Virus record (IMG/VR): IMGVR_UViG_3300043414_000472
Location: 1-61,400 of that record
Direction: 5' to 3' (one strand)
Length of the DNA: 61,400 nucleotides
DNA from: a virus
Lineage: Duplodnaviria; Caudoviricetes
The notes under the pieces are model-generated. The model was not told the origin of the DNA and made no database searches. It saw only the letters and a program-made list of their open reading frames with translations. A program made the position numbers and the translations under genes. Shown one piece after another: positions 14,119 to 61,400 of the stretch (positions are counted from its first letter, which is position 1; each line of letters begins with the position of its first letter).

Positions 14119-14136
14119 AAATTTCCGATACAGGAT

Positions 14137-16158: not shown

Positions 16159-16167
16159 CGCCTTGCC

Positions 16168-22769: not shown

Positions 22770-23117
22770 ATGAGAACCGTAAAAGAAGAACAATTACAAA
22801 AGGACGTGAAAGTTTGGAAATCAAGAGCGGAAGCACATGAAGAAAACTACTTGCAGATGCTCAAGCGTATTGACGATGTTATTGCAGAACGTGATGAGGC
22901 AACACGATCCTGCCATATCTGGCAAAAGGGTCACTCAGATATTGTTGCGGAACGTGACCTTTGGAAACTTGAAGCGACTCGTTGGCGCGATATGTATTTG
23001 GAGTACGACGAAATGCTGGAGGGACAGGTTCAGGAAGCTGTGGATCGGCTTAACAAAGTTTGGGAAGATCTGGATAAGCTCAAGAAGAAAGTACAGGATG
23101 ATCTACGGGAAGACTAA
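22770..23117 (+). CDS. Hypothetical coiled-coil protein
   Basis: AERD repeats; adjacent ORF. Confidence 0.6.
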   Translation: MRTVKEEQLQKDVKVWKSRAEAHEENYLQMLKRIDDVIAERDEATRSCHIWQKGHSDIVAERDLWKLEATRWRDMYLEYDEMLEGQVQEAVDRLNKVWEDLDKLKKKVQDDLRED

Positions 23118-23328
23118 GTTGCAGTGGTGCAGACGCTGCCAGCAAGACAAACCAGTACGCGAGTTCTATGAAAGCCACCGCACGCGCTGTATGCGCTGCA
23201 TGAGCGAGTGCGCCAAAGAACGCCTATCCGATCCTGTAAAACGGCAGCAGCAACGTGATCGATGCAAGAAGAACTACTACGAAAAGAAAGATGAAAACAC
23301 TATTCCCGAAACAAAGAAAGTCCGTTGA
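23098..23328 (+). CDS. Small Zn-finger protein (CRRC...EFY...CMRC)
   Basis: Resembles the N-terminal Zn finger of phage HNH/EndoVII proteins. Confidence 0.5.
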   Translation: MIYGKTKLQWCRRCQQDKPVREFYESHRTRCMRCMSECAKERLSDPVKRQQQRDRCKKNYYEKKDENTIPETKKVR

Positions 23329-41802: not shown

Positions 41803-41822
41803 AATTTAGAAAGGGGTTCCTA

Positions 41823-41855
41823 CATCCTGTTTCAAGCTGTACAAGAAACAGGATG
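41823..41855 (-). terminator. Stem-loop after 41869-42312
   Basis: CATCCTGTTTC/GAAACAGGATG inverted repeat; weak U-tract. Confidence 0.4.
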
Positions 41856-41868
41856 CAGGATTAGGGGT

Positions 41869-44457: not shown

Positions 44458-44720
44458 AAAAGTAGTTAGTTAAGAAGTTAAAAAGGTTGTTAAAAGTTAA
44501 AGAAGAATACACGGTTGTCGCAGAAGCAGGCGACAGGCGACAGGCGCATAGGCCTTAGCTTCAAATAACCCTTAGATCTACTCTACTACTAGAACCAAGT
44601 TTTCTCTTTCGAGACGGCATGGAGCGAGCCGATAGCTTCGTAAAATTTCAGGTCGAAAGAAGATTCGTATAAAATTGATTACTTGTCAACTCAAATTTTA
44701 TACGAAGCTATAACTTTTAT

Positions 44721-45833
44721 TTAGCCACCGAATGCAGCAGCAACAGCATCGACAAAGGATTTACTATCCATAGCAGGCATAGAGCTATTATTGAGTGATC
44801 CGCCTCCTGCTTTAGGGGAAGAACGGTCGTAGTCTGCAAGACGAGAGGTCAAGGAATCGATCTCTCTTTGAAGACCCATATACTGTGCCGCCATCTTTGG
44901 CAGTAGCTTCGCAGCGATAGCCTGATAGGTGCTATTAACGTGATCAAGAGAAGCGGGATCAATCTGAGCAGCTTCTTTAGCAATCTGATTGAGGTCAATC
45001 CCTTCGACCCCATCAAGGAATGCTACCTTACTACGTAGTTTATCGGCAACGGCATTGGCAGCTTCTTGCCTCTGCTGTACTTTATGGACTAAAGCCATTT
45101 GATGTTGCTCATGGTCTAGTGCCATAGCTTCCTCCAATGCAGCCTGTGCATTCTCCTGAAGTACATGACGTTGTTGAAGAATTGGCTGCACTTCCTCGAT
45201 AATCTTGTAAATGCGAAACTTGTCACGGTCACTTGCTGCAGCAAGTAATTCAGCAAGTTGTTCTTCTTGTGCGGCTTCATCGCTCATTGCAATGATCTCC
45301 AAAAGACCATTCCCATCAACTTGATATTTCTCAGCAATAGCATCAGCTTCAGACACAAGCTGCATAAGTGGCTGTTCAACAAGACTCTGATATGCTTGAC
45401 TCTGCTCCAGTTTGGATACGATCATTTGCTGCTCATACTGAGCAACACGATCTTGCAGTTGCTGGTACTCAGGATTATCGGCAAGGGCTTCAAGCTCTTG
45501 CAAACGAGTAGCTTTCTGCATCGTGTCCTGCTCAAGCTCTTCAGCACGAGTCTTATAGGTTTTTAACTCAGCTTTGAGTTCCTTAAACCGACGTGCCGCT
45601 TGTGGAGTCCAGTCCTTCGCATCATCAAAATCAAGATCCGAAAGAGGATCATTGGATTGTGGCGTTTCGATTGGAGTCTCAATTACTGCTTCGGATGCAG
45701 GAGTTGGGGTTTCAATCTGTGGATTATCCAATGAATCGAAGAACGAATCAAGGGACTCTACAAATCCGCCATTATCGGCAGATGCGGTTTCCCCTTGCGG
45801 GGCTTCGGTTAGTACGGCTTCTGGTGCGCTCAT
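44721..45833 (-). CDS. Capsid scaffolding protein
   Basis: Acidic N-terminus and long coiled coils immediately upstream of the MCP. Confidence 0.7.
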   Translation of the reverse strand: MSAPEAVLTEAPQGETASADNGGFVESLDSFFDSLDNPQIETPTPASEAVIETPIETPQSNDPLSDLDFDDAKDWTPQAARRFKELKAELKTYKTRAEELEQDTMQKATRLQELEALADNPEYQQLQDRVAQYEQQMIVSKLEQSQAYQSLVEQPLMQLVSEADAIAEKYQVDGNGLLEIIAMSDEAAQEEQLAELLAAASDRDKFRIYKIIEEVQPILQQRHVLQENAQAALEEAMALDHEQHQMALVHKVQQRQEAANAVADKLRSKVAFLDGVEGIDLNQIAKEAAQIDPASLDHVNSTYQAIAAKLLPKMAAQYMGLQREIDSLTSRLADYDRSSPKAGGGSLNNSSMPAMDSKSFVDAVAAAFGG

Positions 45834-45849
45834 ATTTTATGGTGAGAAA

Positions 45850-46140
45850 TTATTCAATGTGTGACCACTCTTCAGGTACAGTAGTACGTGATGCTGGAGA
45901 CTTAGTGAGCTTTTGAAGATCACGGTAGAAATCATTATATCCACCTAACCAACACATACGATTTTCATTAGCTGTACCGCTGACAATCGTGGAGTAGGTT
46001 GGCTGTGCTGCGTTAGTCAAAGTGGCACAAGCGAGCTGATAAATAGGATCACTAAGGATTTCCCTTAGTCTTTCGATGGCAGCGAGATCATTGAACCAGT
46101 GGTCCAACTGTTTAGGAACAGTAGCTTTGTGAGCAGGCAT
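45850..46140 (-). CDS. Hypothetical protein between portal and scaffold
   Basis: Promoter TTGACA-17-TTTTAT-6-ATG (46147-46175). Confidence 0.65.
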   Translation of the reverse strand: MPAHKATVPKQLDHWFNDLAAIERLREILSDPIYQLACATLTNAAQPTYSTIVSGTANENRMCWLGGYNDFYRDLQKLTKSPASRTTVPEEWSHIE

Positions 46141-46184
46141 GAGGGAATAAAACCACGAAGTTCGCAGTTTGTCAAATAATTTAT

Positions 46185-48449
46185 TTAGCTAGTTGCGTTG
46201 CCTGAAAACTTAAGCGCACGCTCTGCATCCTTCAAAGCAAGATCCTGATCAGACTTAGCTTGCTTGATTTGCATTTCAATTTGTGCCTTCTGTTGGGCGA
46301 TCTGCATCTTAAGCTGATGCTCTTGCATCTTCATCTCCATCGGAGACGGACCTGCTTGTGGTTGTTGCTGTCCTTCTTGTGGCGGCTGACCTTCAGCTTG
46401 TCCTGCTTCCATTGCCTTGCGCTGTTCGGCTTGCAACTTGCGGTTGAAGTTTGTGATGACTTCCTGTGCAATCTGCATCAGTTGATTGGACTCAGCCACT
46501 TGTGCCTTTGCCGTCGGATCAGCGGAGAGGTACTGCAAATGTTCTCCGCAATGCTGGAAGATTGCTTGAACCAACGGAAGAGCCTGCATTGGATCAACCT
46601 CGCCTGAATCAATGCCAGCAACAAGCTGTTGCAGCATAGGATTGTGGATGCGGAGGTGCATTCCGTGTAGCTCACTATCGAGAACGGCAACGGGTTGACC
46701 TGATTGCATTGCTTGATTTTCGAGCATAGCGATCTTCGCATCAACAGTAGTACGTGGTTCTGGATTTGCTGGCGCATAGCGATCAACAAGGTCACGACCA
46801 ACCCGTTCCGAAGTGATGTCACGGATCAAGTTGCGGCGACCTACTTCATCGTAGCTACCAGCAATTTGATTAAGCTCACGGAGAGCAAGCAAACGGTTGG
46901 CAGCAGAGCCAGCACCGATTGCTTTGACAGCGACAGTCTTGTTGTGATCAATTGACTTGATGATCTGCTCACTCACGCCTCGTTCAGCGCATCGGGCAAA
47001 GAATGCCTTAGTACGGTCATCGCGTCGAGGATTGCTCACAGCGCGTCGTACGACCTCTTTGAGTAGTCGTGCCCAGCTCGCATAGAACAAATTGATTGTG
47101 GAGCCTGTCAGGCGCGAAGAAACGGCAAGGTCGTGTTCGGTCTGAAGCTGGTTACGATACGGCGAGGATTGGTTGCCGTAAGTCGAAACTAAATCGACGT
47201 TGGCAGAAAGTTGGTTTTGCAGATCACTCAGTGCAGGAACCATGTTCTGCGATAGATTCGGTGCTGCTTTCTCGATGACCTTCACGTTCGGCGAAAGAAT
47301 CGAGTATGGCCCGTACATCGTGAACGACAAGTCCTCAAGCGCACGCTGCGTCTCAGGCTGAATCATCACTGCGCCAGACATCATCGCACTGTCGAGCATC
47401 TGGCAACGAATACGATTACTCGTCTGAACGTGATTGAAGATGCGATGTCCTAAGCCACGAACTGAATGATACGTGCCGTTGGTGCCAACGCCGTACGAGA
47501 ACAATACGTATGCTTGCTCAGGCTTTTCAAACATTCCTGTTTGCTTAAACATGAAGGACTTTGGAGTCTCTTCAGCAAACATAAGTAGTGAGACAGAGCC
47601 GTCGAACTCACGGACCCACATATGGACAACCTGTACAGTCGTATTTTCAAGACCTGTATAGAGATCGTTATTCTTCATCTCGCGTTGGGTCACTTCCCAA
47701 TCCGCGTAGGTATTGCTGCCATTGCGTCCTGAAGTACGTGCGTTCTTGACAATGACGCGTTTGACTTCCTCTACGTCCCAGCCGATCTTCGCTGCGGCCT
47801 CAGGATTCTTAATGAAGGCATAGAGTTCGTGCAAGAGATACTGACGACGGGCACAGGCTACTTCGATGTACTCTTCGGATGCAGGAGTCTGACGTGGGAT
47901 AAGGAAGTCGCCCAAACCGCAAACACGGAACTTCCAACTGTGTGGATCTTCAAAGTAAGCAACGCCGACTCCGTGTTTGGTAAACTCAGTGCAAAGGCGC
48001 AAGTAGCTGCTGTGGAACTCGGGCCATTCCCGCATCATCTGCGTCAGCTCTTCGGCAATGATGTCGTTCGCGTCTTGCTTCGTAGCATCTTCGCCCAACT
48101 GCGTCTTGACGTTCATCAGCTTATCAAGCGACGAGTAGAGGTCAACGTAAGCTGACATCGAGACATCGAGATAGCGTTGTGCTTCGCCGAAGTTTAGGTT
48201 CGTACGATTGCCTTGGCCTGTCGAGTACAGAACCCTTTGATCATACGGCGGCGCACCATCAAACATAGCGTCAGTACGCGCACGATTACTTGAAGACTTT
48301 TCATCGGCTTTGCGGAGTGTGTCGTAAATCGAACGCGCAGCTTTCACGTCACGCAAACGCGATTCAGGCGGCGTAAGCGTATCAGGATCTAGGTTCAACA
48401 AGTCAAACTCGTTGAGACCTGAAGGTGTCACTGGCGGATTGTTCGTCAC
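46185..48449 (-). CDS. Portal protein, ~754 aa
   Basis: Size, Gln-rich coiled-coil barrel at the C-terminus, position; start reassigned to GTG 48449 after TTGACT-17-TACTAT-7 (48457-48485). Confidence 0.8.
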   Translation of the reverse strand: MTNNPPVTPSGLNEFDLLNLDPDTLTPPESRLRDVKAARSIYDTLRKADEKSSSNRARTDAMFDGAPPYDQRVLYSTGQGNRTNLNFGEAQRYLDVSMSAYVDLYSSLDKLMNVKTQLGEDATKQDANDIIAEELTQMMREWPEFHSSYLRLCTEFTKHGVGVAYFEDPHSWKFRVCGLGDFLIPRQTPASEEYIEVACARRQYLLHELYAFIKNPEAAAKIGWDVEEVKRVIVKNARTSGRNGSNTYADWEVTQREMKNNDLYTGLENTTVQVVHMWVREFDGSVSLLMFAEETPKSFMFKQTGMFEKPEQAYVLFSYGVGTNGTYHSVRGLGHRIFNHVQTSNRIRCQMLDSAMMSGAVMIQPETQRALEDLSFTMYGPYSILSPNVKVIEKAAPNLSQNMVPALSDLQNQLSANVDLVSTYGNQSSPYRNQLQTEHDLAVSSRLTGSTINLFYASWARLLKEVVRRAVSNPRRDDRTKAFFARCAERGVSEQIIKSIDHNKTVAVKAIGAGSAANRLLALRELNQIAGSYDEVGRRNLIRDITSERVGRDLVDRYAPANPEPRTTVDAKIAMLENQAMQSGQPVAVLDSELHGMHLRIHNPMLQQLVAGIDSGEVDPMQALPLVQAIFQHCGEHLQYLSADPTAKAQVAESNQLMQIAQEVITNFNRKLQAEQRKAMEAGQAEGQPPQEGQQQPQAGPSPMEMKMQEHQLKMQIAQQKAQIEMQIKQAKSDQDLALKDAERALKFSGNATS

Positions 48450-48481
48450 AAATTGAATAGTATGGTTGGCTATTGTAAAAG

Positions 48482-49039
48482 TCAAGAAATTGTTTCAGCG
48501 TCTCCGAAGATGCTGATGACGAGTTTCTTAATCGGCAGACGCTTCCGCTTACCGTCGTCGTCCGTTAGCTGTACGCACCACTGATGTCCTCTCGGATGGA
48601 TGACAGGCGTGACGCGATGTCGCATACCTGCTGTGCGTCCTCTTGATGCGGGCTGGATGCGGAACACGGAGCCATCGGAGGCAATGGCATATTTCGAGTA
48701 GTTCGGAATTACGGTGAGGTCAAGTGGTGTAGTCATGTCGGAGTCGATCTTAGGGGCGTATGGCAGCTTGTCAATTTCTTTCTGAATTATTCTTCGGATG
48801 GGCTTGCGTCTGCGGCGTATCGGAAACAGGTCAGATACAAACCGCTCGTTCTTTGGTTTCTTATGTTTCAATCTAAGGTGGTTGGTCTCATGGTATCGCG
48901 TAATCTTGTTTAACCGCATTAGCTCAAAACGCTCACGTGATACCCAACGCTCGCCACCACGATAAGTCGCCCCATAGTTGAGAAAAACAAAACCGTCCTC
49001 TCTTGTATCTCCGTATCGCAAACGTCGTGTAGTCTCCAT
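48482..49039 (-). CDS. NUMOD4-like DNA-binding protein without HNH domain
   Basis: C-terminal IPNYSKYAIASDGSVF...VQL...GKRKRL.I..LV...F; N-terminal REDGFVF...GERWVS shared with the HNH; promoter TTGACG-17-TACCGT-7-ATG. Confidence 0.6.
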   Translation of the reverse strand: METTRRLRYGDTREDGFVFLNYGATYRGGERWVSRERFELMRLNKITRYHETNHLRLKHKKPKNERFVSDLFPIRRRRKPIRRIIQKEIDKLPYAPKIDSDMTTPLDLTVIPNYSKYAIASDGSVFRIQPASRGRTAGMRHRVTPVIHPRGHQWCVQLTDDDGKRKRLPIKKLVISIFGDAETIS

Positions 49040-49121
49040 AGGCAAGACGGTACGGCAAAACCCAAATCCCGTCAAGTATTTTGTTCAATTAAAAAGAGAA
49101 TGTGAATTACTGTTAGTATAA

Positions 49122-49261
49122 ACCTTATAAATACTCTATCCTTTAGGTAATTCATATTATCTCAATAATTCAGTTAATTAAAATTTAATTGAATTATTGA
49201 TTTACATTGAATTACAGTAGTTTGAGAAACTCTTCAGATTTTCCTGCCGTGCTAAAAGTCC
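49122..49261. repeat. ~140-bp AT-rich iteron/hairpin element, copy 2
   Basis: Direct repeat of 14137-14277; identical 31-bp block at 49221-49251. Confidence 0.85.
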
Positions 49262-49395
49262 TCTCAAATTATTTCTGACTGACGATTTAACCCTGATCCC
49301 TGTATCCTGAAGCCGCGATGCGAACCGTGCGTCTGCGTCTGCGCGAGAGCACATATCTGCTAGAAAACGGTTAGATCTAACAGAATACTAACAGA

Positions 49396-49421
49396 AAAGG
49401 CACCACTTTCGTGATGCCTTT
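49396..49421. terminator. Probable bidirectional terminator
   Basis: AAAGGCACCAC-TTTC-GTGATGCCTTT. Confidence 0.55.
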
Positions 49422-49469
49422 GTCCTGATTCCTGTATCTTGCTACAGGATTAAGGGTACAGGATGGGGG

Positions 49470-49697
49470 TTACGCGCTTTTTGCGTTGTTATACCGCAAC
49501 CGTTTGCGATCCAGTAGCTTCTGACGGTTTGTCAAGTAGTAATTTCGCTGATAATTGCGATTTTTCTCTTGCTTTTCGGGATTTAACTCCGCTTCAAGCT
49601 CCCTTTTTCGGCGCAGATCACCCTTTTTGGCTTCATAATACGCCTTCTGGTACTCTTTACGAGCCTCTTTGTTCCTATCGTAGTAGCTTTTGTCCAT
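49470..49697 (-). CDS. Small basic helical protein (YY..NKE repeats)
   Basis: Promoter TTGACG-17-CAGAAT upstream. Confidence 0.55.
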   Translation of the reverse strand: MDKSYYDRNKEARKEYQKAYYEAKKGDLRRKRELEAELNPEKQEKNRNYQRNYYLTNRQKLLDRKRLRYNNAKSA

Positions 49698-50035
49698 AAG
49701 ATTTTGCGTGTAAGACCCTCATTCTGCCAATTCTTTGCTGATTCGTCAACCTCAATTATTTTTTTCTCTGACCGTATATACATATCATAGACCCCGCACA
49801 AAAACGGGCACCCCCACCCGTAGCGTGTGCCATGCATCATGTACCTGCATGATGTATGCAGATCCATGCAGCCACATGACGGGTGACGGATGCAGGATTC
49901 AGGAGTCAAGACGGTCTTGACGATGCTTCTCGCAATGCCTCCATGCATAATGCGCTCGCATGAAGAGACCCCCAACGTGGCAAGTATAGTGAAGCCACAA
50001 CGGCGGAGAGAATAACAATACACTACACTACTGAC

Positions 50036-50548
50036 ATGACAACGAACAACGCATCCATCATCACCGCAACCGCAACGGCAACGGCTAACGCCTTGTGGAC
50101 TTGCATCACAAGCACCCACGAGCTTGCCTCCTCCATCGCATTGCTTTGCAATGCAAACGGCGAGAATTACAAAGAAGCTGGTGCTTCCTTGAGGGTCGCA
50201 TGGGACGAGATCGGTTACGACGTTCTCCCCTCACAAGCCACTCGCACACTCGTCGAGGCTTGCTTCCAAACCAACATGGAGCGGAAGTCTGCTTCGCAGT
50301 TCCTCAATGCAATGGGACTCGTGACCAAGCAACGCATCAGCCAACTCTTGTCCGTAGTCTTCGACGGCGACAAGAGCAAGAACAACAACAACGGCAAAGC
50401 CGACAAGAAAAGTCAAGAGGGTCTTGACAAACCCAACGGCAACGGCTTCACGTTTGAGCAGATCCTCGCGTCACTCCAGTCGCTTGACAAACTCACGATG
50501 GAGCAGGCACAGATCCTCGCATCGGTCGCCGCATCCAAGATTGCCTGA
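50036..50548 (+). CDS. Hypothetical early protein, possible HTH (VTKQRISQLL)
   Basis: First ORF of the plus-strand block; AC-rich leader. Confidence 0.65.
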   Translation: MTTNNASIITATATATANALWTCITSTHELASSIALLCNANGENYKEAGASLRVAWDEIGYDVLPSQATRTLVEACFQTNMERKSASQFLNAMGLVTKQRISQLLSVVFDGDKSKNNNNGKADKKSQEGLDKPNGNGFTFEQILASLQSLDKLTMEQAQILASVAASKIA

Positions 50549-50627
50549 ATCCTGAATCCTGCATCCTGCAAGTCCAACCCTTGCAGGATGCAGGTCACAT
50601 GAACCATAATCCATGAACCATAATCCA

Positions 50628-50885
50628 ATGAACCTAATCGAAAAGAAAGCAAGAGAAGTATACTTCGCCGTCTACGACGAAGCGACTGCGTTAGGTGTTT
50701 CAGAAGCCACCAGCAAAGTCCTCGCACGAGTGGCAAGCGCGGAGATCTATCACAAGTGGAACGGAGTCAAGAGGGTCTTGACAAAGTGGCTTCGCCGTTG
50801 CGTCGTAGCCGTAGCGGTAGCCGTTGCCGTAGGTACGGCATCGTTCCTCGTCGCCTACTCAATCCTCAACCTTCTTCCGCAATGA
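50628..50885 (+). CDS. Hypothetical membrane protein
   Basis: C-terminal hydrophobic helix. Confidence 0.5.
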   Translation: MNLIEKKAREVYFAVYDEATALGVSEATSKVLARVASAEIYHKWNGVKRVLTKWLRRCVVAVAVAVAVGTASFLVAYSILNLLPQ

Positions 50886-51031
50886 GCGATCAAGCCACAG
50901 CATACCTCATGCGTAAGAGTCCGAAGGCGTTGCTTCGCCTTGACGTACCCACTCCGCTAGTGGGCAGGCAGATCCTGCTTTGGCCGAAGTCTAAACCCCT
51001 TCCGCCGTTGGAAAAGTCAAGACCCTCTTGA
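50882..51031 (+). CDS. Small hypothetical protein, 49 aa
   Basis: ATGA overlap; MSDQATAYLMRKS. Confidence 0.4.
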   Translation: MSDQATAYLMRKSPKALLRLDVPTPLVGRQILLWPKSKPLPPLEKSRPS

Positions 51032-51171
51032 CGATTGCCCATTGCCGTTAGCTAGTCACCTGACTAACGGCATAGGGCAGTTCGTGTGAATTGCAATGGG
51101 TTGTGTCGCCCCATAGGTAAAGCGACAGCGTAACGTATGCCAAAGCGTTGCAGTAAACGGCTACATCACAT

Positions 51172-52500
51172 ATGAATAACATCACAAGAGTATCGGCAGA
51201 GATTGCCGCGTTGTTCGTCGGCATGACCTGTAGGTTTGAAGGCGTGCCTTACGAGTTCGGCGTCGTCAACACCTACGACCCGCCATCGCATCAGACAGCA
51301 GTAGTTGCCTATGCGTTGGTCGAGACCATCGACGGCACGATGCAGAGGAAGGAAGACTGCAGTCGTGTCTACACGTCGTCGTCGTCTCCATCGTACTCAT
51401 ACGCTCACTTTGACTGGTATAACGACCAGCAATTAGAGCAGGCAGAGAACGACGAAGAAGTCGCTTACTGCGACGAAGCAGACTGCTATGCTACGGCAGA
51501 GAACGCTCGCTACTGCGAGCATAGCGGCACGATAGAGCACATAAGCGACATCGAGTACTTCGACGGAGAGTGGTACCTCTGCTCGCACAATCTCATCCGT
51601 CAAGATGGTCATGGCAATGACTTCCTCGACGGCGACGATTACTACGTCTACTGCGAGAACGATGGCGAGTTTTGGCCTATGGACGAGTGCCACTACTGCG
51701 AAGAGGGCGGATGGATCTGTGGCGACGAAGATGACTGCGACCATTGTGGTCAAGAGGGTCTTGACCGAATCCTCTCCTACCATAGGCACGGCAAGTCCGC
51801 TGACCTGTTCGTCGGCGCGAGTGGTTGGCTTGTAGGCTTTGAGGTAGAGAAGAATCGTGTCGGCGATGCAGACTCTGCAGGCGACCGCATCGACCACACC
51901 AGTCTCTTTGCCTATTGGGAAACCGACAGATCGTGTGGCATCGAAGGTGTGACCCACGCTTACGACCCAATCGACGAGCAGGTCAAGCTTCAGTTCAAGT
52001 CCGATCTCGCAGAGGCTTCTCACCTGATCGACGTGCCATGTGACAATCGTTGCGGTGGTCACATCAATATCTCTTGTCAGAATATGGCACCGAGGGATAT
52101 GCTCCAATCGTTCCGCAAGTATGCACCGCTGTGGTATGCGGTATACCGCAATCGTCTGACGAACTACTTCTGTTCTCAGTACGACAAGAAGATTGAGCAT
52201 GGCACGGAGAAGTATTCGCCTGTCATCACGAAGTCATTCGGCATCGAACTCCGCTTGCCGTCTCGTGTCACAAATGCAACGCAGCTTGCTCGTAGGTTTG
52301 AGTGGGTTGGCGTGACCTGCTCCGCTATGCGAGTCGATATCGGTTTCAACGCCTACGTCAAGGCGTGCAGAGACACCCTACTCAACGGAGCGTACAGCGG
52401 AGACCGAAGCAAGTATGCCAAGGTGCTACGCCTTGCTCGCAAGTTCCGAGTGTGGATGCTTGACGGAATTGCCCATGCTGACATTCAAGAATGGGTATAA
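51172..52500 (+). CDS. Putative amidoligase (COOH-NH2 ligase) with N-terminal Cys-rich acidic repeats
   Basis: GFEVE, ETDRS..IEGVTH, CGGHIN, KY, IELR; YCE repeats and CDHC. Confidence 0.75.
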   Translation: MNNITRVSAEIAALFVGMTCRFEGVPYEFGVVNTYDPPSHQTAVVAYALVETIDGTMQRKEDCSRVYTSSSSPSYSYAHFDWYNDQQLEQAENDEEVAYCDEADCYATAENARYCEHSGTIEHISDIEYFDGEWYLCSHNLIRQDGHGNDFLDGDDYYVYCENDGEFWPMDECHYCEEGGWICGDEDDCDHCGQEGLDRILSYHRHGKSADLFVGASGWLVGFEVEKNRVGDADSAGDRIDHTSLFAYWETDRSCGIEGVTHAYDPIDEQVKLQFKSDLAEASHLIDVPCDNRCGGHINISCQNMAPRDMLQSFRKYAPLWYAVYRNRLTNYFCSQYDKKIEHGTEKYSPVITKSFGIELRLPSRVTNATQLARRFEWVGVTCSAMRVDIGFNAYVKACRDTLLNGAYSGDRSKYAKVLRLARKFRVWMLDGIAHADIQEWV

Positions 52501-52584
52501 GTCAAGACCCTCTTGACCAACCGACAATGCGTAGCTTACCGCATAGCTGAAGCACTAACCTAAACGAATAGAAAACAAATCATT

Positions 52585-53610
52585 ATGTGCCTTATCATAC
52601 ACAATCCAAAAGCAAAAGTAATCTCACACGAGATCCTCGACAACGCAATGAGCATGAATCCAGACGGCTTCGGCATCTTCTTCCATGACACGAAGGAGAT
52701 CATACATACCATGAAGTGGGACGAGACCTGTGACCTGTTAGATACAGGACGACCCTACACCGCTCACTTCCGCTATGCAACGAGTGGGCCTATCGGCAAG
52801 AAGAACTGCCATCCGTTTACCATCGACCATACTTACTCGCTGATGATGAACGGCACCATTGACAGACTCAAGTCGTCGAAGTCCGTCGATACGCTTGAGC
52901 TATGCAAGATCCTCAATGGGATGTCAGCGAACAAGATGCTTGACGTGCTAGCTACCTATGCCTGCCGCTTTGCCCTACTCAATCGCTCGACAGGTCAAGT
53001 CGCGTTAGTCAACCATGACCTATGGACTATCCGTGACGGGGTGCATTACAGCAAGGCGAACTGCTTCCCTTCGGAGCGTAGTCCATTCAGCTATACTGCA
53101 CCGAAGTCAAGCTACTCACTAGAGCAAGACGAGATAGATAAGGAGTGGGAGGAGTGGCTTGCACAAGAGCAAGTAGGCTACGAGATCGACGACTTAGATG
53201 ATGACAAGTGGAACGTATCCCAACCTGCATCCTGTATCCCTAGCCTTGTAAGCGTAGCCGTCTACGGCACACTCAAGAGAGGGCACGGCAACCATCGTCT
53301 GCTTGAGTCAAGCTACTGCTTAGGCGAGGGCAACACGTCCGATTCGTATCCGCTAGTCATCGACAACCTGCCGTATGTCATCGACCGCAAAGGTCACGGC
53401 AAGCGTGTACAGGTAGAGGTCTATCGTGTCGATGCTAACACTCTTGCTCGACTCGATAGTTTAGAAGGTCATCCCGACTGGTATCAGCGTAAGCAAATAC
53501 AAGTGCATCTGCATAAGGGCGGGACGATCACGGCATGGGTCTACATGATACCTGATGCCAAGAGCCAGACACACATGAAGGATACAGGAATCTATCACAG
53601 CAGTTACTAA
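52585..53610 (+). CDS. Class II glutamine amidotransferase fused to gamma-glutamylcyclotransferase (AIG2/GGCT)
   Basis: N-terminal MC, NPDGFG, HFRYAT.G, NCHPF, NG; then VAVYGTLKRG..NH, EVY.V, LD.LEGHP.WY.R, AWVY. Confidence 0.88.
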   Translation: MCLIIHNPKAKVISHEILDNAMSMNPDGFGIFFHDTKEIIHTMKWDETCDLLDTGRPYTAHFRYATSGPIGKKNCHPFTIDHTYSLMMNGTIDRLKSSKSVDTLELCKILNGMSANKMLDVLATYACRFALLNRSTGQVALVNHDLWTIRDGVHYSKANCFPSERSPFSYTAPKSSYSLEQDEIDKEWEEWLAQEQVGYEIDDLDDDKWNVSQPASCIPSLVSVAVYGTLKRGHGNHRLLESSYCLGEGNTSDSYPLVIDNLPYVIDRKGHGKRVQVEVYRVDANTLARLDSLEGHPDWYQRKQIQVHLHKGGTITAWVYMIPDAKSQTHMKDTGIYHSSY

Positions 53611-53676
53611 GTCAAGACCCTCTTGACAAACCAATGCGTAGCTTACCGCATAGTTGTAGCACAACACAAACGAACT

Positions 53677-53856
53677 ATGAACCACCTAATACTAAACGTG
53701 AAAGATGGATGGGTCACCTATCAAATGGGGACGCAGACAGGTATGCATCCGATTGGCGACGACTACCCGTCACAAGTCATCGACTATCTGGTACGCATCA
53801 TCAACCCATCATCACACGAGGTCCACTATTACCCAACAGAACAAACCAATGAGTGA
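53677..53856 (+). CDS. Hypothetical protein
   Basis: MNHLILNVK after the repeat cassette. Confidence 0.55.
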   Translation: MNHLILNVKDGWVTYQMGTQTGMHPIGDDYPSQVIDYLVRIINPSSHEVHYYPTEQTNE

Positions 53857-54103
53857 AGAACCTACACTAAATGAGAACGATGCAAACGTAACACGGATCG
53901 TCCGTGCCATATGCCCGAACGGCAGGCCTATGATTGTGCAAGCAGAGTACTGCGTGATAGATGACGTAGAAGTGGAACTCGACGTAGACACAGTCGTCGT
54001 CTTCCCTATCTTCGATGGTATCGTGGGCGAACGCTTGCCCATCACCGAAGAGGAACAGATTACCGCCGCCTTAGGGCTTGCACAAATACTCGATAGACAA
54101 TAA
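53849..54103 (+). CDS. Hypothetical acidic protein
   Basis: MSEEPTLNE; overlaps previous stop. Confidence 0.55.
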   Translation: MSEEPTLNENDANVTRIVRAICPNGRPMIVQAEYCVIDDVEVELDVDTVVVFPIFDGIVGERLPITEEEQITAALGLAQILDRQ

Positions 54104-54122
54104 CACACAACACACTACACCT

Positions 54123-54284
54123 ATGAACACACCTACTAATCCACTCGATCAAGCCGTACTCGCCGCAATCAAATCCCTTTGGCCTATGGTCAGATCCAAG
54201 CTTGATCGTAAGACTGAAACCTTAATCGACAACCTGCTTAACGGAAAGGTCAAGACCCTCTTGACTAAGTCCCCTAAAAAATAA
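54123..54284 (+). CDS. Hypothetical protein, 53 aa
   Basis: AC-rich leader. Confidence 0.5.
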   Translation: MNTPTNPLDQAVLAAIKSLWPMVRSKLDRKTETLIDNLLNGKVKTLLTKSPKK

Positions 54285-54389
54285 TTGAAAATACTTACTT
54301 GACATAAGGATTAAATTGAATTACAAAGGTCTTCGGTAGTGGGAATCGTCCCACTGCCGCCACATAAACTGATACACACTACATACATT

Positions 54390-55484
54390 ATGACAACGAC
54401 AAACACTGCCATCAACTCCATCAAACCATCCGAACTCTTGCCACTCGCCGAAGCGGCAAGCATGATCGACCGCTTCCTTATGATCGTAGGTAGCGGAGGT
54501 GCAGGCAAGACCTCAATGGTCTGCAACGTCCTCGGCCCTGCAATGGGACGTGAGGTGTGGGAAGTCAACCTCAACGGACAAGGCCCACAAGAAACGACAG
54601 GCTACCTTGTGCCTGACTCCGTCACGAGGGATGGCTGGTTCTCCGCCCCTGAGATTTGGCCTACGCTAGATCGTGTCGGTGATCGTCCTGTCCTCCTGTT
54701 CCTTGACGAAGTGAACGACTACGATCCACAAGTTCGTGCTCTGTTGCGTAGCCTGTACCCTGCATCTGGCAAGCGGAAGATTGGTTCCCATACCTTAGGC
54801 ACTAACGTCTTCGTGGTGTGTGCCACTAACCGACGTTGCGATGGTACTCGTTCAGCGGTAGAGGACGCGCCGTTCACAGAGCGGTGCATCAAAGTCACGT
54901 TGGAACCTAACGTAGCTGACTGGCTCGACTGGTACGACACGAACCCCAAGCTCGCCGCTTGTGGCTCCCATGTACCATCGTTCCTTCGCTTCGGCACAAC
55001 AGGCGGCGATGGTCTCGACCACTTCAACCCGCCTGTCGTCATGCCGTATGATGGTGCCCCGCATCCTTGTCCTCGGACATGGGAGGCAGTCGCACTGCTT
55101 GAGCCAATCCGTATCACGGCACGAGACATCTACCGCAAGGCAGTCAAAGGTTGTGTCGGTGATCGTGCGGCATCTGCGTTCTTCGGGTTCCTGCAACACG
55201 TTGACAAGTTGCCTGACATCGCCGCCCTTCGTGCCAACGCTGACACGTTCCAAGTACCTGACGACCCTGCCAGTCAGTTCGCCCTCGTGTCGGCCTGCTT
55301 GAGCGGTGCGACTCGTGGCATCAAGGACATCCCGATTGCCGTGCATAGCGGCGGCTTCGACTGGCTTGTTACCCTACTGCTCAAATGCAGAGGCGACATC
55401 CGTGAGTTCGGTGCACGCTCCGCTGAACGTAGAGGTATACCACTCAGCGAGCATCCTAAATCCCATGCCTTGATCCTCGGCTAA
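54390..55484 (+). CDS. MoxR-like AAA+ ATPase
   Basis: GSGGAGKT, LLFLDE, VCATN, ER arginine finger, CPRTWE. Confidence 0.88.
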   Translation: MTTTNTAINSIKPSELLPLAEAASMIDRFLMIVGSGGAGKTSMVCNVLGPAMGREVWEVNLNGQGPQETTGYLVPDSVTRDGWFSAPEIWPTLDRVGDRPVLLFLDEVNDYDPQVRALLRSLYPASGKRKIGSHTLGTNVFVVCATNRRCDGTRSAVEDAPFTERCIKVTLEPNVADWLDWYDTNPKLAACGSHVPSFLRFGTTGGDGLDHFNPPVVMPYDGAPHPCPRTWEAVALLEPIRITARDIYRKAVKGCVGDRAASAFFGFLQHVDKLPDIAALRANADTFQVPDDPASQFALVSACLSGATRGIKDIPIAVHSGGFDWLVTLLLKCRGDIREFGARSAERRGIPLSEHPKSHALILG

Positions 55485-55552
55485 ATGGATCTGCGTAGCT
55501 TACCGCATAGTTGAAGCGTTCAACAATAACACAACAAACTAGATACAATACT

Positions 55553-56434
55553 ATGACAACAACAACTACTACACTAAACCTCGGCACTGCTCAATCACTC
55601 GTGCTCTGCCACTACTCGACAACTGCACCTGCTACCACTGCACTCAACCGCTCCGCTTCGGCACGAGCGATCACGTCAGCAGGTGCAGAGAAGGATGCGG
55701 CTCGATTGTACAACACGATCCTTGCCGCCAAAGGTACAGCAGTAGGCAAAGCAATCAGTCTGCAACAGCGTACTGGCGTTGCAGTTCGCCGCTTCGGTAT
55801 GCTCTGCCAGACTGGCGGGTTCTACCTACGCATCAAGGATGTCGATCAAGTACAGAACGTGTTCGACGATGCCGTTGCGGAACTCGACACGATCCGTGAG
55901 GATATCCTTGCAACCTATCCAGACTTACTCAACATCGTGAAGAGCAGACTCGCTAGCTTCGCAACCGAAGTCAGCATCCCATCTGCTACCGAAGTGGCGA
56001 GCAGGTTCACGATGCGCTTGTCCGTCATCAATCGTCCTGTCGCAGTCAATGAGGCAGTGCTTGTCGGCCTAACCGAAGAGGTGGCTAACCGTGTAAGAGC
56101 GGACAGCCAACGTCAGATCGAGGAAGACTTCCGCGCATCTCATGCTGGTCCAGTCCGTGACCTCAAGAAGGTGATCGAGGACTTCACCGATGCGATGCGT
56201 AACGCCGACCGCTTGCACCTCACGCAGTTCGACAAGCTCCGTGATGAGGCAAAGCGTGTGAAGAACCTGAACTTCCTTGACCTGCCTGAGATTGATGCGG
56301 TAGTAAAGCTCGCCGCTGAAGCCGCCGCCTCACCTGTCGGTGTGCCTACTAAGTCAGAGCGTGAGACCATCGCCGCCAAAGCGGAGAAGGCAATCAGCAA
56401 AGCAGACGAGACGCTCGCCGCCCTCGGTCTGTAA
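55553..56434 (+). CDS. Helical protein, DUF3150-like partner of AAA/VWA
   Basis: Position between AAA and VWA genes; YP.L...P...EV..RF pattern. Confidence 0.45.
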   Translation: MTTTTTTLNLGTAQSLVLCHYSTTAPATTALNRSASARAITSAGAEKDAARLYNTILAAKGTAVGKAISLQQRTGVAVRRFGMLCQTGGFYLRIKDVDQVQNVFDDAVAELDTIREDILATYPDLLNIVKSRLASFATEVSIPSATEVASRFTMRLSVINRPVAVNEAVLVGLTEEVANRVRADSQRQIEEDFRASHAGPVRDLKKVIEDFTDAMRNADRLHLTQFDKLRDEAKRVKNLNFLDLPEIDAVVKLAAEAAASPVGVPTKSERETIAAKAEKAISKADETLAALGL

Positions 56435-56491
56435 CCTGTAACCTGTATCAGGAGGTCCGACCCCTCCTCACTCTAACCTAAATACATACAT

Positions 56492-57922
56492 ATGAAATCA
56501 AATATAATAGATCCAACATCGTTCCCTTCGGAGCATCCGTTAGCCGTTGCCATGCGTAACGTCAGTCGCCACTGGTTCCTTGCATACAGCAAGCTCATGT
56601 CAATGGAGTGGGAGTGGTCAACCGCTATCCCATACGGCGCGACTGATGGTCGCCGCCTGCTACTCAACAAGGCAGGCATTGACAAGCTATGTCGCAAGCC
56701 TAACGCATCAGGACTGATCTCGTTCCTGCTAGTACACGAGTCGCTTCATGCCTTGTTAGGTCACGGCTGGAGGCTAGCCAAGATGCCTGACCTGCATCGT
56801 GCCAACGTCGCCGCTGACTACGTCATCAATGCGATGATCAAGATGCGTAACACCGAACTCAAGAAGGAAGTCTTTCCGTTCATCGACGGAGTGCTACTCG
56901 ACGAAGCCTTGTCTGGCGACAAGTCTGTCGAGCAACTCTATCGTGAACTGAGCAAACCAAAAGAAGAACAACCAAAACCACAACCACAACAAGACAATGA
57001 ACCTGAACAAGACACGGATGAAACTAATGAAGGACAAGACAAGTCTGATACCGAAGATGAAAGCGGAGACGACGATAGCAAGCAAGGTGATGGCGAGTGT
57101 GATGCCGACGGAGGAGAGGACGATGTCAGCCTCGGGCAAAGCAAAGGCAGGCAAGGCAAAGAACTACAAGGGTCTGAAGAGGTAGACGATGACGACCTCT
57201 TCGACTTCGTAGGTACTGGCTCGCCAGATAACCTTGAGCCTGAAGCCGAAGAAGGTGAGACACAAGCCGAAGCAATCGACAAGATTGAGGAGGACAATGA
57301 TCGTATCCTAATAGCTGACGAGATTGATAGGAGACAGCAAGCCGACAACGGCACGACAGGTCAGCGCATTGGCAGTCAGCGTAGCTATGGCTCGACGTTA
57401 GGGTGGCCTGACCTGCTACGTCAGTGGCTCACGAGCAAGTCACGTTGCGGATGGGACGCGCCATTCAACGCGCCAATCTATTCCACAACAGGAGTTGTCG
57501 GTGCAGGCAGACGCAACAAGAAGGCTGGCGAGATTGTGCTGGTACTAGATACGTCAGGCTCAATCGGTCAGCGTACCTACGACCGCTTCCTGCAAGAAGC
57601 ACAAGCCGTGCTCGACGAACTCAAGCCTGAGCGTTTGCACCTGTTGTCTGTGTCCCATGTCGTAGCTGACGTTGTCACTCTACAAGAGGGCGATGCTGTG
57701 CCGAACAAGCTGAAGGGCGGAGGCGGTACTGCATTCAAGCCAGCATTCGATTGGGTCAGGGATAACGTGGACGACATGGACGTGATGGTCTACCTCACTG
57801 ACGGATGGTCATGCGATCTGCAAACGCTACCGCAAGTGGAGTTCCCCCTGCTTTGGCTCACGACACAACGTGCTGTCGCTGACTTTAAAGTGGGCGAGGC
57901 TCTTGCTATCACCGAACTATAA
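56492..57922 (+). CDS. DUF2201-type metallopeptidase + acidic linker + VWA domain
   Basis: ATDG, HESLH, N.AADY.IN; MIDAS DTSGS, GGGT.F.P, YLTDG. Confidence 0.88.
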   Translation: MKSNIIDPTSFPSEHPLAVAMRNVSRHWFLAYSKLMSMEWEWSTAIPYGATDGRRLLLNKAGIDKLCRKPNASGLISFLLVHESLHALLGHGWRLAKMPDLHRANVAADYVINAMIKMRNTELKKEVFPFIDGVLLDEALSGDKSVEQLYRELSKPKEEQPKPQPQQDNEPEQDTDETNEGQDKSDTEDESGDDDSKQGDGECDADGGEDDVSLGQSKGRQGKELQGSEEVDDDDLFDFVGTGSPDNLEPEAEEGETQAEAIDKIEEDNDRILIADEIDRRQQADNGTTGQRIGSQRSYGSTLGWPDLLRQWLTSKSRCGWDAPFNAPIYSTTGVVGAGRRNKKAGEIVLVLDTSGSIGQRTYDRFLQEAQAVLDELKPERLHLLSVSHVVADVVTLQEGDAVPNKLKGGGGTAFKPAFDWVRDNVDDMDVMVYLTDGWSCDLQTLPQVEFPLLWLTTQRAVADFKVGEALAITEL

Positions 57923-59360: not shown

Positions 59361-59464
59361 TGACTATCGTATCCTTCCTGTTCTTGTTTATGATTGGGCC
59401 TTTGCCTGTACTTATGGTTCTATGGCAACTGCTTCAGGACTCTATTCGTCGTAGGCATCATTGA
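59357..59464 (+). CDS. Small membrane protein, 35 aa
   Basis: MMTIVSFLFLFMIGPLPVLMVLWQLL...; overlaps the end of the convergent giant gene. Confidence 0.4.
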   Translation: MMTIVSFLFLFMIGPLPVLMVLWQLLQDSIRRRHH

Positions 59465-61400
59465 CATAATTGATAGCTCCCTTGCGGTTGACTGATCGGT
59501 TAATGCTTTGGAGCTTCTGCATTGGGTCTTGCTCCTTCGCTTGTTCAGCATTGAAGTAAGTCTTTTGATTCCACTTATCGTTCGGTCTCCATGCGATCCT
59601 GTATCCTTGGTAGGCCGAACCGATAGTGTCGTCGCTGAACTTGTACATCTTAGCGGACGAGTAGACAGAGGATTCAGGTGAACCCATGGATACCATCGAG
59701 TGCATGAAGCGATTCAATCTACGTTGAGTTTCGTTAAGTGCATCCTGATGCCTGTCTACTACATCGTCGATCTCGCTATCTGATTTGAACCTGCCGCTTG
59801 TAAGGTCTCCAATAACTGAAACAGAGTTGTCGAGTAATCCTTTAAGGTTACGGAATCCTCTGCGCTCTACGTCACCAAAGGTAACGGTCTTCGGACGGGA
59901 ACCTAGAAGTTCACCGAACAGAATCTCTTCCCTATTCGTTTGACCTTCACGCCCGAACTCAATCGTCTTCGTAGCTAAGGATGGGATGAGAGCACCCTTT
60001 GCGTAGTGACTGAACATCCGTTGCATTTTGAGTGCAGCGTTGTCTGTCTCAAGGTAGATCGGTTGACCTCTATCGTCAGCATTATTCAAGATCTCATCCA
60101 CTGCAGTAGCTGCAATCTGCGTGCCGATCAAGTCTCCTGTAACGTAGGACGCGAGTCGTGATGCACTGATACCTTCGCCTGTCTTGATGCCATCTGTAAT
60201 GATGGCAACCATATCGGTTAGCTGACTATGCGGTAGGATGTAGCTCATGTCGATGAACTGAATCTTGCCGCCTTTAAGGATCTGCGCTTTGATCTGATGA
60301 CCTCTTTGCCATTGCGGCAGAGACTCACGGAGAGCAGCGAGTTCGACGGCAGTCAACTCACGCTCTTCGTCTTCATCGTCACCTGTCAGTGCGCGGAACA
60401 CTGCAGTCGAAGCGGCACCGATTACAGCAGGAGCAACAGACAACGTGCCAATGAATCCAGCAAGGCGTTGCACACCTCTTCGTGCCATCACACCACCTTG
60501 ACCAATCTCTTCCATTGCTAATGGGATAGTGTTCAGCATAGTACGGAACACCTCAGACTTCCATCGAGCGAAAGGCAGGAAGAGAGCAGCCATCGGAGTC
60601 TTATTGAAAGACTTAACTAAGTCAATCACTTGCGAGTTACCTGCAAAGGTCAGCTTGACTTTACGAGCGGCAGCTTCTTCTTGTTGCTCCACTGTCATTG
60701 AAGTACCGAAGTGTTTCTTGATAACATCAAGATCATGGTAGTAAGCGTTGGCTTTGAACATACCATCAACGGCACCGTCAAGTGCAGCAAGTTTATCGGT
60801 AACAGTTGAGTAGCTTGCTAGTGCTTTATCAAGACCGCCTTTCAAGTATCCGTTCTGTTGGATTCTTGCAAAGACACCGCCTGCATCTTTTGTGGCGCGA
60901 GCTTCGTCGAGAGAAGCCATCAACTCTTGCAACTCTTGTTGAGGTGAAGCGATCAATCCCCTTAGTAGGTCTTGTGCTACGCGCCCTTGTGACTGGTCGT
61001 TGAGTACGTTGAGTTTCACCAAACGAAGAATCGCTTCACGCTCCGCTTGCTCAGTAGGGAGCGAAGAGAATGCAGCTTTCCATGACTGGTTCATTGATTG
61101 CCGTCCTTTAGCAGAAAGCGGATTCATAAAGATCCCTTGTGCTGAACTTAGTACGAAACCACCGATAGCATTACGCGTCCAGTAACCAATACCGAACTGA
61201 GTCTTCATCTGAATTGCGGTACCACTAACACCCATTACAACCCTACCCAACTTATTCATTACGTTAGTTGAGTTAGAGTTTAATCCATTCATGTTGACAC
61301 CGAAGACTTCATTCAGTACACCTGCTACCTTTGGATCAAAGTATAGACCAGCTAGATCACCTGTCCTCGGAGCAGAGCTTGCCGCATATGGCGTGACCCA
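59442..61400 (-). CDS. C-terminal part of the giant polyvalent virion protein (joins 1-9967)
   Basis: ATG 61292 corresponds to position 19, in frame with 9967; LPFARW..EV.R motif typical of C-termini of large internal virion proteins. Confidence 0.85.
   Translation of the reverse strand, partial: WVTPYAASSAPRTGDLAGLYFDPKVAGVLNEVFGVNMNGLNSNSTNVMNKLGRVVMGVSGTAIQMKTQFGIGYWTRNAIGGFVLSSAQGIFMNPLSAKGRQSMNQSWKAAFSSLPTEQAEREAILRLVKLNVLNDQSQGRVAQDLLRGLIASPQQELQELMASLDEARATKDAGGVFARIQQNGYLKGGLDKALASYSTVTDKLAALDGAVDGMFKANAYYHDLDVIKKHFGTSMTVEQQEEAAARKVKLTFAGNSQVIDLVKSFNKTPMAALFLPFARWKSEVFRTMLNTIPLAMEEIGQGGVMARRGVQRLAGFIGTLSVAPAVIGAASTAVFRALTGDDEDEERELTAVELAALRESLPQWQRGHQIKAQILKGGKIQFIDMSYILPHSQLTDMVAIITDGIKTGEGISASRLASYVTGDLIGTQIAATAVDEILNNADDRGQPIYLETDNAALKMQRMFSHYAKGALIPSLATKTIEFGREGQTNREEILFGELLGSRPKTVTFGDVERRGFRNLKGLLDNSVSVIGDLTSGRFKSDSEIDDVVDRHQDALNETQRRLNRFMHSMVSMGSPESSVYSSAKMYKFSDDTIGSAYQGYRIAWRPNDKWNQKTYFNAEQAKEQDPMQKLQSINRSVNRKGAINYVNDAYDE
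61274..61400. repeat. Terminal direct repeat (assembly overlap), copy 2
   Basis: Identical to 1-127. Confidence 0.95.

Follow-up and report, generated by a model that had tools for sequence, protein, structure and literature searches.

The stretch of DNA considered here, called the window throughout, is IMG/VR record IMGVR_UViG_3300043414_000472 at its full length (61,400 nucleotides; G+C content 46%), a phage assembled from freshwater metagenomes. Because the first and last 127 bases of the record (1–127 and 61274–61400) are identical, we consider it a circularly assembled, complete genome of 61,273 bp, and hence the open reading frames (ORFs) listed as open at both record ends are taken as a single gene. 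At the start of its rightward gene block, which is putatively early-transcribed as judged from gene order, lies a module with eight copies of a 17-bp palindrome, GTCAAGA-NNN-TCTTGAC, abbreviated P in what follows. These copies had been singled out in an earlier reading of the window, made from its letters only (the sequence-only reading), as a site array for a dimeric factor. The features that bear directly on the array are the following.

49835 to 54384, plus strand: hypervariable early module holding all P sites; replaced whole in the close relative G005
49905 to 49921: P site 1, centre CGG; in non-coding DNA, the ATG of gene 50036 following after 114 nt
50036 to 50548, plus strand: gene 50036 (170 aa), first gene of the module, from a family without annotation; predicted homodimer and candidate P-binding protein
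50412 to 50428: P site 2, centre GGG; reads SQEGLD in a disordered linker of ORF 50036–50548; the most widely conserved copy
50766 to 50782: P site 3, centre GGG; reads VKRVLT in ORF 50613–50885
51016 to 51032: P site 4, centre CCC; extends over the TGA that closes a short ORF at 51031, with a 50-nt hairpin directly 3'
51599 to 51615: degenerate copy of P with 2 mismatches, in gene 51172–52500
51749 to 51765: P site 5, centre GGG; reads GQEGLD in gene 51172–52500
52501 to 52517: P site 6, centre CCC; 0 nt after the TAA of gene 51172–52500, then element E2 (described below)
53611 to 53627: P site 7, centre CCC; 0 nt after the TAA of gene 52585–53610, then E2
54249 to 54265: P site 8, centre CCC; reads VKTLLT near the end of short ORF 54123–54284, 33 nt before a sigma-70-like promoter

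The pattern GTCAAGANNNTCTTGAC matches at exactly the eight sites listed, with start-to-start spacings of 507, 354, 250, 733, 752, 1110 and 638 bp, and 100 dinucleotide-preserving shuffles gave a mean of 0.00 matches. Allowing up to two mismatches added only the copy at 51599 (GTCAAGATGGTCATGGC), inside the array region, which bears out the earlier statements that the other ~57 kb hold none and that P occurs only where the rightward block starts. The centres are CCC, GGG or CGG as had been read, and the in-gene sites of the window have a centre opposite to that of its intergenic sites. The positions with respect to genes were likewise confirmed: four copies lie within ORFs and are read in different frames, one covers a stop codon (51016) and two follow TAA stops directly (52501 and 53611). 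The short ORFs of 49 and 53 aa that overlap P are putative genes; for ORF 50613–50885 no homologue was found among the related loci searched. The four exact 17-mers of P had no occurrence in the literature searched. Two promoter readings were rejected. A sigma-70 reading of the TTGAC arms finds no −10 box at 16–19 nt and, as the sequence-only reading had held, TTGAC-N17–19-TAnnnT on the plus strand starts from no P site; for a Bacteroidota-type promoter, no TAnnTTTG stands within 200 nt of any site.

Relatives were found by a motif scan of IMG/VR and then by protein-guided scans. In all, 67 P sites were counted in 11 distinct genomes, namely the window and ten related uncultured phages, two of the 67 being offsets of neighbouring sites. 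There are 8 sites in the window, 7 in G001, 3 in G002, 5 in G003, 9 in G004, 8 in G008 (7 real and one offset artefact), 5 in G009, 6 each in L151 and L152, and 5 each in L153 and L156. The arms are exact at 63 of the 67 sites, the two offset artefacts being among the other four, and the DNA flanking P is only 70–80% identical between relatives. Whole-record searches placed all sites of the relatives in the syntenic early region, apart from one A/T-centred match with one mismatch in G001; the arrays always sit in the same early module. Through a metagenome scan four array-bearing contigs were added, the sites of which are all of one and the same type. In five other relatives (G005, G006, G007, G010 and G011) there are scattered matches only; a single one is exact, the others have one mismatch each, and no array is formed. 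Among GenBank phages, blastn of 49000–56000 gave no match, and a search for RNA runs covering 49000–57000 listed only DNA contigs.

The ATPases of the window and of G005 are 98% identical and are sisters on the ATPase tree (support 100/99), and the two genomes share 85% DNA identity over 43897–49834 and 92% over 54385–56435; the stretch 49835–53830 has no counterpart in G005. A second sister pair (support 95/87) joins G004, which has arrays, with G007, which has none. Given these pairs with and without arrays, and the replacement of the module in G005, the palindromes belong to one version of a hypervariable early module. Different repeated hairpin cassettes are found in this module in G005 (AGTTAG...CTAACT) and in G007 and G011 (CCCTTATTCCG-TCAA-CGGAATAAGGG); the cassettes of relatives without P are about 50 nt long, with a stem sequence specific to the lineage (L126 3845–4790; L133 1856–3495; L134 143–1390). 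Pieces made of P and E2 are the only matches inside otherwise unrelated segments. The circular assembly, the whole-module swapping between close relatives and the stop-adjoining sites in relatives, considered further below, had been missed by the sequence-only reading.

The in-gene copies indicate what selection acts upon. The copy at 50412 lies in a disordered stretch of the 50036 product (residues 113–138, pLDDT below 50) that is K/N/G-rich and, among homologues, indel-rich. In the eight distinct site-bearing homologues of gene 50036, third codon positions are invariant at 5/5 arm-constrained codons of NGT-CAA-GAN-NNT-CTT-GAC, against 14 of the 156 aligned codons outside the motif and 6 of the 32 degenerate codons at which the amino acid is invariant. 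The loop-position codon varies among homologues, and the first residue of the motif peptide is S, G or R, always coded by NGT. This synonymous-site comparison demonstrates purifying selection on P at the level of the nucleic acid and not of the protein, in agreement with the earlier claim. A peptide matching P is present in 56 of the 66 members of the 50036 family, and the palindrome in this gene is kept across homologues down to 33% protein identity; the G009 homologue lacks the linker site and has one 14 nt after its stop.

Judged by alignment, P site 5 is a lineage-specific gain: at this column the site is absent from 6/6 homologues of the 442-aa protein encoded by gene 51172–52500, and the G004 homologue carries a P site of its own in a different column. 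Thus, P sites have been gained anew inside coding sequence. The in-gene copies in this gene, both in the window and in G004, swap codons one for one without any change in length. Independent in-gene copies of this sort are hard to explain for a promoter or a terminator.

The anatomy of the sites differs between lineages. In G001/G003-like lineages P is an 8+1+8 palindrome with G, C, T or A as the central base; the central five bases read ACGGT 30 times and ACCGT 12 times, ACAGT and ACTGT being also seen, and the central base differs between homologous sites of close relatives (G001, G002, G003 and G009). Such a free, flipping central base fits the dyad of a dimer site and not a hairpin loop. 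The centre is CCC or GGG in the window (with one CGG), whereas the arms themselves vary elsewhere: G004 has mostly GTCAAGACCYCCTAGAC, with one half changed, G008 has GTCTAG-N5-CTAGAC at 7/7 sites, with both halves changed symmetrically, and G009 has one GTTAAG...CTTAAC site. Only one symmetric arm variant occurs within the G001-like lineages. A symmetric change of the arms would fit base pairing or a dimer alike. P forms an independent hairpin of −7 to −10.7 kcal/mol, which in the window has a 7-bp stem and a 3-nt loop (−7.2 kcal/mol as RNA), three of the seven stem pairs being G–C. At 5 of the 9 G004 sites an A.A mismatch leaves a fold of only −2.8 kcal/mol, which is like that of shuffles in two of three cases. 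Since an unpaired intermediate is frequent, G.U-type variants are lacking and the base at the dyad is free, we favour recognition of the duplex by a symmetric protein.

Besides the sites themselves, the module holds a candidate for that protein. A homologue of gene 50036 is present in 6/6 genomes with at least five sites (the window, G001, G003, G004, G008 and G009) and absent from 6/6 others, which are G002, with three sites, and G005, G006, G007, G010 and G011, with none. In a large protein collection this family counts 66 members, all unnamed and free of Pfam domains. Prediction of the 50036 product as a homodimer gave a score of 0.88, the best of three controls reaching 0.02; in a benchmark of this score, 20 of 30 solved same-chain pairs and 1 of 23 single chains attained that mark. 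The three dimer runs had at least 83% of their contacts in common, with a partner pLDDT of at least 78 (79 in each run), so that modelling supports pairing of the product as a homodimer. The AlphaFold model has a confident helical domain over residues 1–112, followed by the disordered residues 113–138, and among 40 family members R100 is invariant and Q99 and Q103 are nearly so. The 122-aa first gene of G002 was tried as a relative of gene 50036 and rejected (hhalign probability 0.8%). Two distant family members, P0079 and P0084, had no loci in viral contigs.

Two further proteins of the window may be mentioned here. A 220-aa protein encoded at 16141–16803, divergently from the large terminase gene, has an HTH_23 domain (E 2e-6) and weak small-terminase-like matches; a small terminase is its likelier identity, rather than a regulator acting on the palindromes. 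At 49470–49697 on the minus strand, divergent from the early module, a 75-aa, very basic protein rich in Tyr, Lys and Arg is encoded, for which no family match was found; it is nearly unchanged (L137 4041–4268) in G002, a genome without gene 50036.

The distance from P to the next start codon is 8–152 nt, and three classes of downstream sequence can be distinguished. In the first, P is followed directly by an A/C-rich leader with no recognisable promoter; in the second, by the 26-nt element E2; and in the third, by a long hairpin or an AT-rich sigma-70-like promoter. The elements of the last two classes in the window are:

51033 to 51082, plus strand: long hairpin adjoining P site 4; elements like it (GATTGCC...GGCAG) stand after P in several relatives
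52528 to 52553, plus strand: E2 copy 1 (26 nt, TGCGTAGCTTACCGCATAG.TGAAGC), 10 nt after P site 6
53635 to 53660, plus strand: E2 copy 2, 7 nt after P site 7
54299 to 54327, plus strand: sigma-70-like promoter TTGACA-17-TACAAA, before the AAA ATPase gene
55492 to 55517, plus strand: E2 copy 3, 3' of the ATPase gene; P is lacking at this place in the window

E2 (TGCGTAGCTTACCGCATAGTTGAAGC) stands 16–35 nt before start codons and is conserved in relatives with or without an upstream P; a related sequence, TATAGTGAAGCC, precedes gene 50036. From its position and conservation, E2 could be a promoter or a 5' leader structure. At the equivalent of 55492, P precedes E2 in G001, G002, G003 and L153, and an E2-like variant in G009. 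Since the same E2 has no P in the window, the palindrome appears to be an independent unit among varied neighbours. The AT-rich stretch homologous to 54299–54327 follows P in relatives, and a stem-loop directly upstream of a sigma-70-like promoter is found at 54249 and its homologous sites, the other P sites being followed otherwise.

A different repeat reaches into the same region. Heptads ATCCTGN occur in tandem (38 matches at up to two mismatches, 4.5 expected) at 13789–13865, 17095–17114, 41817–41861, 49297–49464, 49886–49905, 50542–50596 and 53222–53241, often in inverted pairs that give long hairpins at gene-block borders; one of them adjoins P site 1. The heptad-built hairpin at 50558–50594, with a 15-bp stem, lies directly 3' of the stop of gene 50036 and is the best conserved stretch of the early module with respect to G004 (91% over 65 nt).

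We favour, tentatively, the explanation that P is a double-stranded DNA recognition site for a sequence-specific, two-fold symmetric regulator encoded in its own early module, the best candidate for which is the dimeric 50036 product. We rank this explanation first because it accounts for the symmetry, the free centre, the sequence conservation and the half-site variants, as well as for the in-gene gains, the restriction of the sites to a self-contained module and their association with a dimeric early protein. The bound protein would block or modulate host RNA polymerase on its way through the module, giving an autoregulated early shut-off, and the site in gene 50036 itself would provide negative feedback. 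A roadblock to read-through by host RNA polymerase is suggested by the location of sites at the ends of early cistrons, in the gene of the regulator and in long genes. The sequence-only reading had left the choice of partner between an injected protein, the 50036 product and a host factor; the array for a dimeric factor stands as the best reading, and the 50036 product gains support from its co-occurrence with the sites, the site in its own gene and the predicted homodimer.

Such an array would work most like the stoperators of cluster A mycobacteriophages or the conserved inverted repeats (CIR) of phage phiC31. Stoperators are many near-identical short sites for a repressor of the L5 gp71 type, situated mostly in very short intergenic spaces, and have been proposed to halt elongation as well as initiation (PMC9283540). 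It is by analogy with them (PMC9283540) that we infer the transcriptional roadblock and its feedback; the binding of P by a protein, presumably the 50036 product, is likewise a proposal. The stoperator parallel, already drawn in the sequence-only reading, holds for the dispersal of many near-identical sites in transcribed or short intergenic DNA (8 in the window and 3–9 in each of the ten relatives), but it fails for symmetry and lifestyle. Stoperators are asymmetric 13-nt sites, bound by a monomer, oriented with transcription, spread genome-wide and found in temperate phages, whereas P is a 17-bp palindrome, with asymmetry limited to its 1–5 central bases, kept within a 4.4-kb module of a phage in which no repressor or integrase was recognised and for which there is a candidate partner only. 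As P is symmetric and local, and the phage shows no recognisable lysogeny genes, the array lies outside the stoperator kind. The CIR of phiC31 are highly conserved 17-bp inverted repeats, intergenic in the early region, to which the repressor of the phage binds; this is a temperate phage with a known repressor, whereas here the partner is a candidate. Most likely, the palindromes serve a regulator of the phage as binding sites, an arrangement of a known kind whose partner protein is still only a candidate.

Several observations weigh against the explanation that we favour. G002 retains three exact sites without gene 50036, and the co-occurrence of gene and sites is confounded: both travel together when the module is swapped, a site is usually present within the gene itself, and the genomes share descent. 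For the 50036 product, neither Pfam and PHROGs nor profile searches against the PDB pointed to a DNA-binding fold or family. Foldseek found no significant PDB neighbour (the best match being a paired helix-turn-helix domain, E 0.56), the profile matched only designed helical barrels in the PDB, and 40 family members compared with Pfam and PHROGs gave noise only, e.g., KorA in 2/40 at E 0.11; residues 83–110 make a putative helix-turn-helix when read by eye. No repressor, integrase or lysogeny gene was recognised in PHROGs or Pfam among the ~45 ORFs scanned, some small ORFs lying outside the scan, and the immunity system of a temperate phage is accordingly not seen among them. Moreover, 28 of the 67 sites begin 0–5 nt downstream of a stop codon (counting reading frames of 40 codons or more), 12 of these adjoining it directly at 0 nt, and several relatives have AAA...TTT flanks like those of intrinsic terminators (TTT as the 3' flank at 23/67 sites, AAA or TAA as the 5' flank at 40/67). 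Finally, at the intergenic sites of the window, G004 and G008 the coding strand is C-rich in the centre of P, in many cases with AAACC after it, which hints at a directional signal.

The positions after stops and the flanks speak for the first alternative, in which P would act in RNA or in transcription as stem-loops between early cistrons, that is, as weak or bidirectional terminators, 3'-end stabilisers or ribosome-sensitive attenuators. P and its downstream elements would then form repeated cassettes like the PeSL elements of T4-type phages, serving as recombination points for the shuffling of ORFans, and their identity would be due to duplication and gene conversion. The stability of the hairpin, the varied promoter-like modules that follow it, the hypervariability of the module and the other hairpin cassettes that take its place in relatives without P all agree with this. 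PeSL are described as conserved stem-loops just upstream of early promoters, between small ORFans and in hyperplastic regions near indels (PMC4122927), and P is also located in a hyperplastic region at the borders of indels and replacements. PeSL stems are loose (G/C runs) and the sigma-70 promoter after them is conserved, whereas P is an invariant 17-nt palindrome with variable elements downstream and with copies in genes. Those in gene 50036 and in the 442-aa gene would cut their messages if P ended transcription, and a T run on the plus strand follows 0/8 sites of the window, two having one on the minus strand only, so that the G+C-rich hairpin with a T run on the transcribed strand that marks an intrinsic terminator is not found there. 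The arms show almost no compensatory drift, the variants are not of the G.U kind and the main G004 form barely folds. P is also the only 17 nt shared among different flanks, hence not part of one duplicated cassette. The repetitive extragenic palindromic (REP) elements of enterobacteria are conserved imperfect palindromes placed just after stops in operons, where they affect mRNA stability and translation of the upstream gene; compared with P they are longer (~35 nt), genome-wide, spread by a dedicated transposase and not known from within genes. We consider the stem-loop explanation unlikely, although it fits the sites after stops.

Another alternative follows from the parallel that the sequence-only reading had drawn with the virion RNA polymerase promoters of phage N4. 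P would be a single-stranded DNA hairpin promoter of the N4/LUZ7 type, used by a virion-delivered polymerase contained in a giant protein, the central region of which would read the hairpin of its lineage. The ORF of this protein (3932 aa, minus strand, 59442–61273 joined to 1–9967) spans the assembly junction:

1 to 9967, minus strand: N-terminal 3322 codons of the giant protein, presumed virion-borne
59442 to 61273, minus strand: C-terminal part of the giant protein, joined across the circular junction

N4 and LUZ7 (Schitoviridae) have repeats with a short stem, a 3-nt loop and a G+C-rich centre upstream of early genes, together with a giant, virion-borne protein of 3500–3900 aa (PMC4496689, PMC9163698). 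The stem, loop and centre of P match the description for N4 (PMC4496689), and some of the nine early hairpin promoters of LUZ7 lie in genes (PMC9163698). P often stands 8–36 nt before starts with no other promoter in sight, and a directional C-rich centre with AAACC occurs in three lineages. In promoters of this type the transcription start lies 11–14 nt downstream of the hairpin centre. The central region of the giant protein (~1070–2000) aligns with that of G003, G004, G008 and G009, does not align with that of G002, G005, G006 and G010, and aligns weakly with that of G007; this tendency to go with the P arrays may be taken as a lead only, as the window and G005 differ in many modules, over about half of their genomes, tail fibres included. 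That genomes with and without P form sister pairs on the ATPase tree is a further point in favour of hairpin promoters.

The giant protein itself gives little encouragement to this idea. It has 20 metagenome homologues of 2301–4767 aa, two invariant HExxH motifs (2109–2113 and 2766–2770) and an Ala/Pro-rich linker near 1230–1440. No match was obtained in Pfam, PHROGs, PDB by phmmer (including the N4 mini-vRNAP), a 14-sequence profile against the PDB or a feature search of a protein atlas, and regular expressions found neither the T7-like motifs T/DxxGR and Rx3Kx6–7YG nor DxDGD/DFDID. Residues 1440–2240 gave a poor AlphaFold model (pLDDT 57), for which Foldseek returned no match at E ≤ 0.001, only weak HExxH-type zincin matches. 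A link to a polymerase through phage phi14:2 was rejected, as the weak tblastn match (E 1e-4, 23% identity) is to g065, which adjoins the polymerase and is not the polymerase itself; the early promoters of phi14:2 share no motif (bioRxiv 10.1101/2020.03.07.982082). Unlike a catalytic core, the central region of the giant protein is its least conserved part. Whereas the loop bases of N4/LUZ7 hairpins give one orientation relative to genes, the centre of P flips between homologous sites and is without strand polarity in most relatives, so that no strand is marked, and the G004 variant barely folds. With no T7-like polymerase domain detectable, the parallel with N4 is not supported as far as membership goes, and we regard hairpin promoters as an improbable explanation for P.

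It is likewise improbable that the factor recognising P comes from the host, or from the virion by injection, and serves an end other than transcription control; P could then act as ratchet or anchor during DNA entry, shield the DNA that arrives first, or divert a host defence or regulator as a decoy. The density of sites seems to matter, with extra copies in genes and spacings of up to ~1.1 kb in the window and G004; the sites keep to one end of the rightward block, and those of G002 persist without gene 50036. Nothing indicates that this end enters first, as the contig is circularly assembled and has no mappable termini. Close relatives without P share most of the alignable structural, terminase and replication genes, which argues against a function tied to the common virion. 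A broader proposal, to which we give still little credence, would unite palindromes, 50036 dimer and the central region of the giant protein in one co-evolving system, in which the presumably injected giant acts at the sites on incoming DNA (in transcription start or genome pull-in) and the early protein later takes over the sites, turning the module off. That P is a selfish, mobile or gene-converting short repeat without function for the phage is very improbable, for although copy number and positions turn over rapidly between relatives and the sites sit where insertions are tolerated (after stops and in linkers), the in-gene copies swap codons one for one with no insertion, the 50036 copy is kept down to remote homologues and no transposase-like gene was recognised.

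As to the rest of the genome, the genes recognised include those for terminase, family A DNA polymerase, helicase, exonuclease, a D5-like primase-helicase and tail proteins; in PHROGs, no family matched the putative capsid and portal genes, and no N4-like family the structural proteins. After the P array, the rightward block encodes a glutamine amidotransferase/gamma-glutamyl cyclotransferase fusion, the AAA ATPase, a DUF3150 protein and a VWA/DUF2201 protein. A 147-nt AT-rich repeat with several GAATTA-type words is present in two copies, 81% identical (14120–14266 and 49105–49251), at the head of both leftward gene blocks; these are probably common promoter or regulatory regions of the structural genes. 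The block at 20900–23120 is a series of small paralogues, the starts of which are repeated (AACCAAAATGACTGAC), and contains repeats of 69 and 41 nt; it has no DNA match in the close relative G005. Three tandem 56-nt repeats (75–100% identical) at 19225–19607 form an internal protein repeat of gene 18853–19800, the N-terminus of which matches MazG-like pyrophosphohydrolase families. A Shine-Dalgarno sequence was found before 0/40 of the start codons inspected, and the leaders are A/C-rich and G-poor, which points to a Bacteroidota-like host with no reliance on Shine-Dalgarno pairing.

The recurrent gain of sites in coding sequence is, in our opinion, a clear case of selection at the DNA level overriding protein sequence. 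If the reading that we favour is true, the P array and the 50036 product would make up a self-contained regulatory module, consisting of sites and a small dimeric protein, that is exchanged as a unit among similar, lytic-looking uncultured freshwater phages. A function would thereby be found for an unannotated protein family of at least 66 members, and a compact, orthogonal pair of protein and site would become available for engineering. Should the giant virion protein take part, the interest would be much higher; the broader proposal given above would amount to a new kind of virion-delivered, site-specific machine. Under the favoured reading, dispersed operators of the stop type would not be limited to temperate actinophages, and the array would give access to the control of early genes in phages with hosts that seem to do without Shine-Dalgarno-led translation.

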